Made by a program: the position numbers and the translations under genes. Shown piece after piece: positions 2,971-6,850 of a DNA stretch of 6,850 nt. A model generated the notes under the pieces. It was not told where the DNA came from and did no database searches. It saw only the letters and a list, made by a program, of their open reading frames with translations. This stretch comes from a virus (Duplodnaviria; Heunggongvirae; Uroviricota; Caudoviricetes), in the IMG/VR virus record IMGVR_UViG_2526164629_000022; one strand, given 5' to 3'. The first letter of the stretch is position 1. The number at the start of each line of letters is the position of its first letter.

Positions 2971-3726
2971 TTAAAGTGCTAGTTGCAATTGCATTTCAAA
3001 GCGGTCGCGTTGTTCACAATACGCAAGAGAACCAGGGCTATTGTGTGCCTCAATCCGTTCTACCATTAATGCTGCGCGTGTCTCTTTACTTGCAGGTGCA
3101 TAAGCCCCAGACCAGGCTTTATCAATACCGATGTTTCGAGCGACGTTCGTACTATCTGCGCTGGCTAAGGGTAATTTTGTGAATATCAGCGGATTTAACA
3201 TGCGCAATCCATGTAGTTTCGTAACCGGCTGACCATGCCCATCAACAATGTGACGAATCAGGTCTTTCATTCTGGCTACCGCAAGAGTTGGGCGCTTTAC
3301 GTCATAGTCGCCACAACTACCGATAGCCACTCGCGGAAACTCATTGCACAAATGAATAAATCGCTCGTCACTTTCATTCATGTGCCACACTGGAACGCCA
3401 GCTAGTTTTCCGTGAGGCCACTCATTCAGAAGCGCATCATTTTCCTCCTCTCCGCCATCAATAACATCCGGGATAATGGCAAAATCGAATCCTGGGTGAT
3501 TCTTCCAGCGAGCAACAAACTCGTAGTAATCGCTCCAGTCGATTTTGTTTTTGCCAGCTGCTTTCCAGGCGGTGAATGCACCGTTGTCCAGCGCGAACGA
3601 CTGACAGTATTCAGCCGCGAGATTGATCTGGCCTGAATGCGCAAAACTGATAAACGCATGTCGCCCTTTCCATGCTCTCATTGCGCACGTATCAGGAGTA
3701 ATAGGCCCACCGTGGTAGTGAATCAT
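2971..3726 (-). CDS. TGT-fold protein, candidate DpdA-like 7-deazaguanine DNA transglycosylase (252 aa from the ATG at 3726)
   Basis: Starting at MIHYHGGPITPDT (GGAG 6-7 nt upstream), the protein shows, in the same order as bacterial tRNA-guanine transglycosylase: ALDNGAF (compare LTDSGGF), DFAIIPD (compare DIVMIFD), VAIGSCG (compare YAVGGLAVG), KLHGL (compare YLMGVG) and ADSTNVARNIG (compare FDCVMPTRNARNG). It lacks the C-terminal CxCxxC...H zinc subdomain, as reported for DpdA. This is motif-level recognition by eye. The track ORF's earlier start at 3768 would overlap the upstream gene. Confidence 0.5.
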   Translation of the reverse strand: MIHYHGGPITPDTCAMRAWKGRHAFISFAHSGQINLAAEYCQSFALDNGAFTAWKAAGKNKIDWSDYYEFVARWKNHPGFDFAIIPDVIDGGEEENDALLNEWPHGKLAGVPVWHMNESDERFIHLCNEFPRVAIGSCGDYDVKRPTLAVARMKDLIRHIVDGHGQPVTKLHGLRMLNPLIFTKLPLASADSTNVARNIGIDKAWSGAYAPASKETRAALMVERIEAHNSPGSLAYCEQRDRFEMQLQLAL

Positions 3727-3727
3727 C

Positions 3728-4056
3728 TCACTCTCCTTTGATGCGAATGCCAGTAGCGCGGATTGCATCGATGACTTCAGAAACTTTGTATGCCATTACC
3801 GTTTGGTAATCATCGTGAAAATCTGTTCGATGAAGCATGCTGCTACGTTCCGGGAGCAGTATTTCCCGCGCTTCCAGTTCTGCAATGCGCTTTTTTGCTG
3901 CTTCCAGTTCATCCAGTAATTCCAGCACGGTAGCCGGATTAGCCTTGGCAACAAAATCCCGGACTGGCTTACAATCAATCTCCGCAATGGGTTGATACGA
4001 TGTGTAGCCATGCTGTCTTGTATAACTACCGTGACGAATAACGAAAAAATCACCAT
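3728..4056 (-). pseudogene. Ea22-like N-terminal coiled-coil protein, interrupted by a -1 frameshift at an A6/T6 run (plus 4044-4049); about 109 aa if repaired
   Basis: The ATG at 4054-4056 opens a frame that turns to nonsense after MVIF. The adjacent frame reads as continuous protein-like sequence, FFVIRHGSYTRQHGYTSYQPIAEIDCKPVRDFVAKANPATVLELLDELEAAKKRIAELEAREILLPERSS...IRIKGE, with no start codon of its own before the GTG at 3928. One extra T in the minus-strand T6 run joins the two frames. Confidence 0.5.
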
Positions 4057-4134
4057 TTATTTTTTAGCCTGCCACTTATCTTCACCGGCTTTCTCTGCCG
4101 CTTCACGCAGTGCCTGAGAGTTAATTTCGCTCAC
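4057..4134 (-). CDS. Possible 25-aa small ORF (MSEINSQALREAAEKAGEDKWQAKK), GTG start
   Basis: The GTG start overlaps the TraR-like stop as GTGA, with AGAGAGG 6 nt upstream. Its TAA stop is immediately followed by the ATG of the Ea22-like gene (TAAATG). The short length makes this speculative. Confidence 0.25.
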   Translation of the reverse strand: MSEINSQALREAAEKAGEDKWQAKK

Positions 4135-4352
4135 TTCGAACCTCTCTGTTTACTGATAAGCTCCAGATCCTCCTGGCAACTTGCACAAGTCCGACAACCC
4201 TGAACGACCAGGCGTCTTCGTTCATCTATGGGATCGCCACACTCACAACAATGAGTGGCGGATATAGTCTGGTAGTTCAGACGACGCATTTTTATTGCTG
4301 TATTGCGCTGTAATTCTTCAATTTCTGATGCTGAATCAATGATGTCCGCCAT
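4131..4352 (-). CDS. TraR/DksA-family C4 zinc-finger protein (73 aa)
   Basis: Carries the motif CCECGDPIDERRRLVVQGCRTCASC, that is CxxC-x17-CxxC with a conserved G/P and Arg cluster. This matches F-plasmid TraR and phage TraR-like proteins, which act as RNA polymerase secondary-channel binders. The length also matches TraR. Confidence 0.8.
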   Translation of the reverse strand: MADIIDSASEIEELQRNTAIKMRRLNYQTISATHCCECGDPIDERRRLVVQGCRTCASCQEDLELISKQRGSK

Positions 4353-4401: not shown

Positions 4402-4428
4402 AATAATAAAAAAGGAGCCTGTAGCTCC
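4402..4428 (-). terminator. Rho-independent terminator (minus strand) between the 71-93 aa ORF and the TraR-like gene
   Basis: Minus strand reads GGAGC-tacag-GCTCC followed by TTTTTTATTATT: a 5-bp stem plus a U-rich tract, starting 22 nt after the upstream stop codon. Confidence 0.55.
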
Positions 4429-4450
4429 CTGATGATTTTGCTTTTCATGT

Positions 4451-4934: not shown

Positions 4935-5089
4935 ACCGCCTCCCGTTTATTATTTATCTTCTCAGCCAGCCGCTGTGCTTTCAGTGGATTTCTGATAACA
5001 GAAAGGCCGGGAAATACCCAGCCTCGCTTTGTAACGGAGTAGACGAAAGTGATCGCGCCTACCCGGATATTATCGTGAGGATGCGTCAT
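4907..5089 (-). CDS. Lambda orf60a-like small protein (60 aa)
   Basis: The ATG at 5087-5089 overlaps the exo stop as ATGA, and the product is [60 protein letters not shown]. The track start at 5095 adds two residues (MA) and is less likely. Confidence 0.65.
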
Positions 5090-5766
5090 CGCCATTGCTC
5101 CCCAAATACAAAACCAATTTCAGCCAGTGCCTCGTCCATTTTTTCGATGAACTCCGGCACCATCTCGTCAAAACTCGCCATGTACTTTTCATTCCGCTCA
5201 ATCACGACATAATGCAGTCCTTCACGCTTCATACGCGGGTCATAGTTGGCAAAGTACCAGGCATCTTTTCGTGTCACCCACATGCTGTACTGCACCTGGG
5301 CCATGTAAGCCGATTTTATGGCCTCGAAACCACCGAGCCGGAATTTCATGAAATCCCGGGAGGTAAACGGGCATTTCAGTTCAAGGCCGTTGCCGTCACT
5401 GCATAAACCATCCGGAGAGCAGGCGGTGCGCATACTTTCGTCGCGATAGATGATCGGGGATTCAGTAACATTCACGCCGGAAGTAAACTCAAACAGGGCT
5501 CTGGCGTCGTTTTCGTACTGTTTTCCCCAGGCCAGCGCTTTAGCGTTAACTTCCGGAGCCACACCGGTGCAAACCTCAGCAAGCAGGGTGTGGAAGTAGG
5601 ACATTTTCATGTCAGGCCACTTTTTTCCGGAGCGGGGTTTTGCTATTACATTATGAACTTCTGACGCTGTGATGACACCGAGCCGTAATTTGTGCCACGC
5701 ATCATCCCCCTGTTCGACAGCTCTCACGTCGATCCCGGTACGCTGCAGGATAATGTCCGGTGTCAT
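5086..5766 (-). CDS. exo: Lambda exonuclease (Red-alpha), 226 aa
   Basis: [76 protein letters not shown]...GFVFGEQWR is near-identical to lambda Exo as recalled. The start overlaps the bet stop as ATGA. Confidence 0.97.
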
Positions 5767-6548
5767 GCTGCCACCTTCTGCTCTGCGGCTTTCTGTTTCA
5801 GGAATCCAAGAGCTTTCACTGCTTCGGCCTGTGTCAGTTCTGACGATGCGCGAATGTCGCGGCGAAATATCTGGGAACAGAGCGGCAATAAGTCGTCATC
5901 CCATGTTTTATCCAGGGCGATCAGCAGAGTGTTAATCTCCTGCATGGTTTCATCGTTTACCGGAGTGATGTCGCGTTCCGGCTGGCGTTCTGCAGTGTAT
6001 GCGGTATTTTCGACAATGCGCTCGGCTTCATCCTTGTCATAGATACCAGCAAATCCGAAGGCCAGGCGGGCACACTGAATCATGGCTTTATGCCGTAACA
6101 TCCGTTTGGGATGCGACTGCCACGGCCCCGTGATTTCTCTGCCTTCGCGGGTTTTGAATGGTTCGCGGCGGCATTCATCCATCCATTCGGTAACGCAGAT
6201 CGGATGATTACGGTCCTTGCGGTAAATCCGGCATGTACAGGATTCATTGTCCTGCTCAAAGTCCATGCCATCAAACTGCTGGTTTTCATTGATGATGCGG
6301 GACCAGCCATCAACGCCCACCACCGGAACAATGCCGTTCTGCTTATCAGGGAAGGCGTAAATTTCTTTCGTCCACGGATTAAGGCCGTACTGGTTGGCGA
6401 CGATCAACAATGCGATGAACTGCGCATCGCTGGCATCACCTTTAAATGCCGTCTGGCGAAGAGTGGTGATCAGTTCCTGTGGGTCGACAGAATCCATGCC
6501 GACACGTTCAGCCAGCTTCCCTGCCAGCGTTGCGAGTGCTGTACTCAT
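5763..6548 (-). CDS. bet: Single-strand annealing protein Beta (Red-beta), 261 aa
   Basis: [100 protein letters not shown]...KAAEQKVAA matches lambda Bet. Confidence 0.97.
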
Positions 6549-6553
6549 CCGTT

Positions 6554-6850
6554 TTATACCTCTGAATCAATATCAACCTGGTGGTGAGCAATTGTTTCAA
6601 CCATGTACCGGATGTGTTCTGCCATGCGCTCCTGAAACTCAACATCGTCATCAAACGCACGGGTAATGGCTTTTTTGCTGGCCCCGTGGCGTTGCAAATG
6701 ATCGATGCATAGCGATTCAAACAGGTGCTGGGGCAGGCCTTTTTCCATGTCGTCTGCCAGTTCTGCCTCTTTCTCTTCACGGGCTATCTGCTGGTAGTGA
6801 CGCGCCCAGCTCTGAGCCTCAAGACGATCCTGAATGTAATAAGCGTTCAT
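6554..6850 (-). CDS. gam: Gam, host RecBCD inhibitor; 98-aa GamS form complete, any longer GamL N-terminus lies beyond the window edge
   Basis: [98 protein letters not shown] matches lambda Gam. The window ends exactly at the internal Met codon, so the upstream extension cannot be assessed. Confidence 0.9.

Follow-up and report, generated by a model that had tools for sequence, protein, structure and literature searches.

The DpdA1 proteins of the Queuovirinae phages CAjan and 9g are validated insertases that place the base preQ0 into DNA. They are single-domain triose-phosphate isomerase (TIM) barrels with neither a zinc motif nor an ATPase partner, and the phages that encode them, in which about 25-30% of the guanines are modified, carry folE, queD, queE and queC (plus yhhQ or gat-queC). 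The bacterial DpdA of Salmonella Montevideo (PDB 7UI4), a protein of 413 residues, has a large helical insertion (Ins8) and a CxCx2Cx22H zinc site, needs the DpdB ATPase and sits in a dpdA-K island (PMC10164549). A further set of phages was recognized by Hutinet et al. in 2019, who sorted 182 viruses by gene content and assigned those that are 'DpdA-only' to group 3 (PMC6884629). These phages are presumed to use host preQ0 (PMC6884629), and the DpdA proteins listed in Supplementary Data 1 of that study include those of SPN3UB (YP_007011024), SfI (YP_009147480), HK106, SEN1, BTP1 and 7-11 (PMC6884629). The subject of the present analysis is a gene of this last kind, located at positions 2971-3726 (minus strand) of a 6,850-nucleotide stretch of phage DNA (IMG/VR record IMGVR_UViG_2526164629_000022), hereafter the window, which comprises the left arm of a lambdoid prophage, where the early leftward genes lie; the host phage of the gene is a lambda-like E. 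coli prophage.

The encoded protein belongs to the same family as those of the DpdA-only phages, with identities by tblastn of 92.8% to the SPN3UB protein and 67.6% to the SfI protein, and with 36% identity to the proteins of HK106 and of Salmonella phage 7-11 (the latter at E=6e-33). As in the temperate lambdoid phages SfI and HK106, the gene occupies the early accessory region, and like the other members of the group the phage of the window has no preQ0 genes of its own. No substantial difference from the DpdA-only group was found, the window allele being carried by an E. coli prophage, with near-identical copies in Stx1a prophages; the only member of the group with chemical data, 7-11, is a distant and virulent phage. 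The identification as such is already published, under the DpdA-only group, while the biochemistry of the clade is not, and the literature on DpdA in temperate or lambdoid phages yielded catalogue mentions only and no later study of the clade. The original prediction had proposed for this locus a DpdA-like enzyme of the tRNA-guanine transglycosylase (TGT) fold as a candidate for 7-deazaguanine modification of DNA. That observation is confirmed and its interpretation is supported, with corrections: the protein is probably a guanine transglycosylase with one (beta/alpha)8 domain that belongs to the phage DpdA family, within the gamma-proteobacterial DpdA-only cluster, and it would act by the mechanism set out below.

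Homology to phage DpdA, catalytic motifs and fold

The window protein matches phrog_887, named 'queuine tRNA-ribosyltransferase', at E=5e-104, and the BLASTP comparison with the experimentally validated DpdA of CAjan, which had been suggested as a check, gave E=3e-9. When the profile of the family alignment (A3; 75 diverse sequences, 31-94% identity to the query, to which all counts out of 75 refer) was compared with CAjan DpdA by hhalign, the probability was 98.75%, with E=1.5e-16 over 172 columns. Together with the conservation of the catalytic Asp residues and most pocket residues, and with the coupling of relatives to YhhQ or QueD described below, this profile homology upholds the DpdA-like identity. 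The two proteins share the catalytic Asp pair and the His, Gly and hydrophobic residues of the pocket, but their identity is about 25%, and the window protein is 55 residues shorter, reads DNG where CAjan DpdA has DSG, and has a shifted Asp in the third motif (IPD87 versus VLD105).

All five TGT-type motifs that had been noticed in the protein are indeed present, and in the order described: LD47NGAF, D81FAIIPD87, AIG136SCG, LH172GL and AD191STNVARNIG. For CAjan DpdA, Kot et al. (2020) assigned Asp206 as the nucleophile and Asp63 as the general base (PMC7544227), and the preQ0/guanine pocket comprises Ser64, Phe67, Asp105, His132, Gly153/154 and Phe189 (PMC7544227). With residues equated through the hhalign register versus CAjan DpdA, both catalytic Asp residues have counterparts, Asp47 and Asp191, each invariant (75/75); the pocket residues and their conservation are given in Table 1. 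The DNGAF, IPDVI, PVWH, HGLR and DS motifs are common to 7-11 and to the YhhQ-coupled, QueD-adjacent, QueD-fused and Dam-fused relatives.

Several observations speak against the assignment. CAjan Ser64 is replaced by Asn48 (69/75), where TGT, DpdA1 and Cap10 all have the serine of DSG, and hhalign sets CAjan Asp105 opposite Asp90, a residue kept in only 38/75. The Pfam scan of the window protein gave no match at E<=1, PF01702 included, the NCBIfam scan gave no TGT or DpdA match, no PADLOC model matched the window protein or any of its 75 relatives, and PDB sequences searched by phmmer and by two profile searches returned nothing relevant. Foldseek returned generic TIM barrels only, with a TM of about 0.45. 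In the same vein, PF01702 was found in none of the 75 relatives at E<=10, and hhalign against a single E. coli TGT sequence gave no match with either profile. These library negatives carry little weight because the validated CAjan DpdA is equally without a Pfam match, as are the DpdA proteins of HK106 and SfI and a 7-11-like DpdA; the PF01702 check that had been proposed for the window protein was thus negative in the same way as it is for CAjan DpdA. Asn48, for its part, is best regarded as a trait of the subfamily and not as a mark of solo copies, because 7-11 and the que-, YhhQ- and Dam-linked relatives share the motif. With regard to the third motif, Asp87, three residues before Asp90, is likely the base-reading Asp, on an alignment whose register is uncertain at this point.

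No CxCxxC zinc motif occurs in the window protein or in any of the 75 relatives, which agrees with the earlier statement that a C-terminal zinc subdomain is missing, and CAjan DpdA likewise lacks CxCxxC. The more general proposition that a zinc-less protein has the DpdA architecture holds for phage DpdA, as in CAjan, but does not extend to the bacterial DpdA, where CxCx2Cx22H is kept (PMC10164549); neither this site nor the Ins8 insertion, the DpdB partner or the dpdA-K island is found at the window gene. Set against the tRNA-guanine transglycosylases (bacterial TGT and ArcTGT; PF01702), the window protein is without a profile match, without the zinc subdomain and shorter by about 125 residues.

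A first AlphaFold model, built from a shallow alignment (identity of at least 66%), had a predicted local distance difference test score (pLDDT) of 74.5, and Foldseek matched it to generic TIM barrels only. The AF2 model obtained from the 75-sequence diverse alignment reached a pLDDT of 94.2 and a predicted template modelling score (pTM) of 0.90, with strands and helices alternating as expected for a beta/alpha barrel. The margin over unrelated barrels (13.5-13.6) in the fold comparison was small. The predicted structure therefore supports a TGT-like (beta/alpha)8 barrel, as evidence that is insufficient on its own.

Conservation of the family and relatives linked to preQ0 metabolism

Homologs of the window protein were found with values down to E=2e-164, and the family falls into more than 7,855 clusters when grouped at 90% identity and into 1,569 when grouped at 50% (E<=1e-3). 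An intact open reading frame (ORF) is present in 201 of 5,426 complete E. coli genomes (about 4%), every copy being annotated as hypothetical, and one of the E. coli carriers is an Stx1a prophage. Protein identity to Salmonella-type alleles is 93-94%, against only 81-83% for the DNA, and the ratio of non-synonymous to synonymous substitution (dN/dS) against those alleles is 0.013-0.023. For more distant alleles the synonymous sites are saturated; in the comparison with L036-L091, amino acid identity stays at 81-94% with saturated synonymous sites (dS >1.6 or not computable). Purifying selection is extreme, and by the standards of phage accessory genes such strong conservation is unusual. One could argue that the gene is a remnant, decaying or already inactive, that persists as a passenger in the accessory region, as there are no precursor genes and the Ea22-like gene upstream is frameshifted in the window. 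This is most improbable, for the catalytic residues are invariant in 75 diverse members, the ORF is intact in the 201 genomes mentioned, and dN/dS is very low at saturated synonymous sites; decay is excluded because of these selection data.

The question of whether the gene truly stands alone was addressed in the window and in a survey of viral loci, 80 closely related ones with 81-100% identity that together span 1.1 Mb. A tblastn search for FolE, QueC, QueD and QueE found none of them in the 80 loci, and the association with genes for 7-deazaguanine synthesis or transport is absent from the window and from 79 of the 80 loci, which have none of the four within 10 kb; the solo status is therefore genuine. 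In two E. coli genomes, too, the annotation of the homologous region includes none of folE, queC, queD and queE. The earlier statements that the window holds no queC, queD, queE or folE, and no dpdB or dpdC, are both borne out, the neighbours of the gene being lambdoid accessory genes.

Although the window gene is solitary, the family is tied to preQ0 metabolism and to DNA modification through its relatives. In one locus of the survey (L059, 9414-10756) an 89%-identical DpdA-like copy is preceded by a gene for a Vut_1/YhhQ-type transporter (Pfam E=3e-9), the stop of which overlaps the ATG of the DpdA-like gene. This two-gene cassette resides in a different lambdoid phage, in a nin-region block, with a DnaB-like helicase ahead of it and NinB and a Dam methylase behind, so that the DpdA-like gene is found in the nin region as well as in the exo-xis region, at least two genomic settings in all. 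In the virulent coliphage Phleasolo, a homolog with 42% identity follows a gene that its annotators call putative VUT family; the product of that gene has no Pfam match, but is 43% identical to the Vut_1 protein of the lambdoid cassette. The homolog in Caulobacter phage DMCA follows QueD. Two fusions were also observed: in a metagenomic sequence (P0261; L011 2840-3847) the DpdA-like domain has an N-terminal QueD/PTPS domain (PTPS E=1e-24), and in P0241 (L012 6001-7266), from a P2/186-like prophage where it lies between a TraR-like gene and gpA, the DpdA-like domain has an N-terminal D12 Dam DNA methylase. Each fusion is known from one contig, and an artefact of assembly or gene calling is possible.

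These relatives bear on two other views of what the protein acts upon. The substrate could be RNA or something else, which would run counter to a role in DNA modification. If it were tRNA or another RNA, the enzyme might, for instance, rival the host TGT or introduce preQ0 or preQ1 at a novel site, re-tuning translation during lytic growth. The protein belongs to the TGT superfamily by fold, several GenBank homologs are named 'queuine tRNA-ribosyltransferase', and no feature of the sequence rules RNA out; the isoelectric point does not discriminate between substrates. Such a target is nevertheless quite improbable, given that the zinc subdomain and a Pfam TGT match are both missing, that the closest characterised homologs act on DNA, that one relative is fused to a DNA adenine methylase while the 89%-identical copy shares a gene block with a Dam methylase, and that the 'tRNA' in these names was carried over automatically from PHROG or TGT annotation.

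A second view holds that the gamma-proteobacterial solo clade, with its DNG in place of DSG and its extreme conservation, has diverged to a distinct substrate or target. It might bind or transfer a different host-derived 7-deazapurine (preQ1 or queuine, for example), remove bases as a glycosylase that only excises, or handle a deazaguanine already linked to protein in the manner of Cap10, possibly interfering with the type IV cyclic oligonucleotide-based antiphage signalling system (CBASS). If this were true, it would constitute a new early counter-defence or regulatory tool for temperate phages. Cap10 itself, a TGT-like ancillary protein (type IV CBASS, PDB 9NTN), acts on a protein N-terminus together with Cap9 and a CD-NTase that has a Gly-rich N-terminus, whereas the window gene has neither a Cap9 (QueC-like) nor a CD-NTase partner nearby, matches no PADLOC model (0/75 among the members of the family) and shows 9% identity to Cap10 in the structural alignment. 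The Z difference is trivial, the Asn motif is shared with 7-11, the DNA of which is modified, and with the YhhQ-, QueD- and Dam-linked relatives, and there is strong sequence homology to the DNA-acting CAjan DpdA, all of which makes divergence of this kind unlikely. The evidence favours a DNA guanine transglycosylase of the DpdA family over both the tRNA target and the diverged or Cap10-like protein.

Candidate mechanism and the supply of the base

For a DNA guanine transglycosylase at this locus, the following sequence of events may be envisaged. Infection or induction would switch on the gene along with the rest of the leftward early genes (gam-bet-exo ... xis-int), and the enzyme would flip a guanine out of double-stranded DNA at some short sequence motif. 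Asp191 is predicted to attack C1' and to free the guanine, yielding a covalent enzyme-DNA intermediate, which would be resolved once Asp47 deprotonates N9 of the incoming 7-deazaguanine base (double displacement); Asp87, His115, Phe51 and Leu174 would form the base pocket. Unlike the bacterial DpdA with DpdB, the enzyme would need no ATPase partner. The base (preQ0, possibly preQ1) would come from the host FolE-QueD-QueE-QueC(-QueF) pathway or from uptake. As the phage has no preQ0 genes, with host synthesis or uptake as its presumed sources, the modification is expected to be low-level and restricted to a motif, and would give phage DNA partial protection from DNA-targeting host defences. Of this picture, the reading frame, its purifying selection, the homology, the fold, the catalytic residues, the solitary state of the gene and the que/YhhQ coupling of relatives are established; DNA as the substrate, the nature of the base, the moment of expression and the advantage for the phage are inferred.

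It is at the supply of the base that this scheme is most vulnerable, although two results demonstrate that the E. coli host can provide it. The DpdA of 9g expressed alone in E. coli gave 84-790 dPreQ0 per 10^6 nucleotides in plasmids (0.03-0.3% of G), and a CAjan queC deletion kept 3.5 dPreQ0 per 10^3 nucleotides, derived from host preQ0 (PMC7544227). That amount was 12-fold less, and EcoRV and HaeIII were not blocked (PMC7544227). The solo-DpdA phage Orion, the host of which lacks preQ0, showed no modification (PMC6884629), and in the solo-DpdA phage 7-11 dADG was present at 50 per 10^6 nucleotides, only 0.02% of G (PMC6884629). The results for Orion and 7-11 count against the scheme. The dependence on host preQ0 that had been postulated for the window enzyme is plausible, then, with the CAjan queC deletion as a precedent for host-derived base, but the modification in that precedent was non-protective. 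The early anti-restriction role postulated along with it is the weakest step, and a classical benefit of this type is doubtful because the host-supplied level in CAjan was too low to block EcoRV or HaeIII.

Several ways around the low supply may be considered: a small pool might suffice to saturate the target motif if that motif is rarer, the precursor might be imported, or the benefit may be something besides bulk anti-restriction. The YhhQ-coupled relatives suggest that import of the precursor matters. With respect to the last option, it is conceivable that an active DNA transglycosylase lays down sparse marks in a role other than classical anti-restriction: the marks could, for example, help the phage to escape one specific defence at an infrequent motif, label DNA that has been replicated or packaged, or adjust recombination or expression. 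This would accommodate the observations that host preQ0 supports low modification only, as in the unprotected CAjan deletion, that the levels in 7-11 and with 9g DpdA alone are minute, and that extreme purifying selection and at least two genomic contexts (exo-xis and nin) go together with low modification. Such a role is rather unlikely all the same, since even a small precursor pool could suffice to modify every site of a narrow target motif, and the YhhQ-coupled copy suggests a boosted supply of precursor, as for bulk modification.

Gene model, neighbourhood and implications

The ORF reads from 3726 to 2971, a span of 756 nucleotides that corresponds to 251 codons plus a stop; the protein is thus 251 residues long and not 252, the original figure being off by one. 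The ribosome-binding site listed in Table 1 was read directly in the sequence, and the RefSeq record uses the identical start (WP_000582233.1, 756 nucleotides, named 'hypothetical protein'). A reading of 265 residues from an ATG at 3768 was rejected; it overlaps the upstream Ea22-like gene, and RefSeq does not use it. The TGA of the Ea22-like gene, at 3730-3728, ends one base ahead of the DpdA-like ATG, a spacing that suggests translational coupling of the two genes.

Table 1. Positions of genes in the window and of predicted functional residues in the DpdA-like protein (residue equivalents refer to CAjan DpdA)
Feature	Coordinates	Strand	Remarks
int	1-1074	minus	
xis and several small accessory genes	between int and the DUF551 gene	minus	
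Cys-rich small ORF	1815-2045	minus	weak Lar restriction-alleviation-like match, Pfam E=0.029, below threshold
Modular DUF551 gene	2109-2960	minus	
Coding sequence, predicted solo DpdA-like (TGT-fold) transglycosylase	2971..3726	minus	251 residues plus stop
ead/Ea22-like gene	within 3728-4135	minus	directly upstream of the DpdA-like gene
TraR/DksA-type zinc-finger gene	4131-4352	minus	
DUF1382 and DUF1317 genes	between the TraR-type gene and exo	minus	
exo	5086-5766	minus	
bet	5763-6548	minus	
gam	6554-6850	minus	
Ribosome-binding site AAGGAG	3733..3738	minus	6 nucleotides ahead of the ATG at 3726
Asp47 (LDNGAF)	3586..3588	minus	Asp63; predicted general acid/base; 75/75
Phe51			Phe67; Phe or Tyr in 72/75
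Asp87 (IPDVI)	3466..3468	minus	likely base-recognising Asp; 74/75
His115 (PVWH)	3382..3384	minus	His132; predicted base-pocket His; 74/75
Gly136			Gly153; 72/75
His172 (KLHGLR)	3211..3213	minus	His187; 75/75
Leu174			base-stacking Phe189; 71/75
Asp191 (ADSTN)	3154..3156	minus	Asp206; predicted catalytic nucleophile; 75/75
Ser192			Ser207; 75/75

In the window the Ea22-like gene is frameshifted by a one-base deletion in a minus-strand A run at 4060-4065 (A6 here). This gap is the sole difference from the best-matching complete E. coli genomes, in which an intact ead/Ea22-like gene is annotated; in strain 13E0767 this gene is 408 nucleotides long and has an A7 run. The frameshift reflects either a sequencing error or a pseudogene, and could make translational coupling to the DpdA-like gene less effective.

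A region nearly identical to that of the window adjoins torS in E. coli 13E0767, where the position counterpart to the Cys-rich small ORF is annotated 'Eag protein'. The DUF551 protein of the window has its first 38 and last 75 residues identical to the 13E0767 protein, annotated there as 'dATP/dGTP pyrophosphohydrolase domain-containing', and its central module is swapped. Directly downstream of the DpdA-like gene, a DUF551-type gene is found more often than any other (32 of the 80 viral loci, 14 nucleotides away). It was considered as a functional partner under its 'dATP/dGTP pyrophosphohydrolase' annotation, and no linkage is claimed because many of the 32 loci are near-identical prophages and the neighbour is not constant.

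The DpdA-like gene shares its strand with gam, bet, exo, xis and int, and no promoter-like site was found on that strand between 1700 and 4800. This fits expression within the leftward early transcript, a placement that we infer from lambda biology. Terminator-like hairpins with T tails on the minus strand, at 4412-4430 and 1751-1770, bracket the TraR/Ea22-like/DpdA-like/DUF551/Eag block; in a lambda-like phage they are presumably read through under N antitermination.

Since the gene is a member of a family that has already been catalogued, the remaining value of the finding lies in the correction of its annotation and in a tractable test of solo DpdA function. The practical gain is that the label 'hypothetical protein' can be corrected in about 4% of complete E. 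coli genomes. How useful a solo DpdA can be on a limiting supply of host precursor has been a question since 2019, and the lambdoid setting, inducible and genetically tractable, is a convenient one in which to test it. If the enzyme is active, common prophages of E. coli and Salmonella, those of Shiga-toxin phages included, would carry 7-deazaguanine marks made from host queuosine precursors, which would affect their sensitivity to restriction and CRISPR, their susceptibility to defences that depend on modification, Dag glycosylases and GrwAB among them, and the behaviour of their DNA in sequencing.

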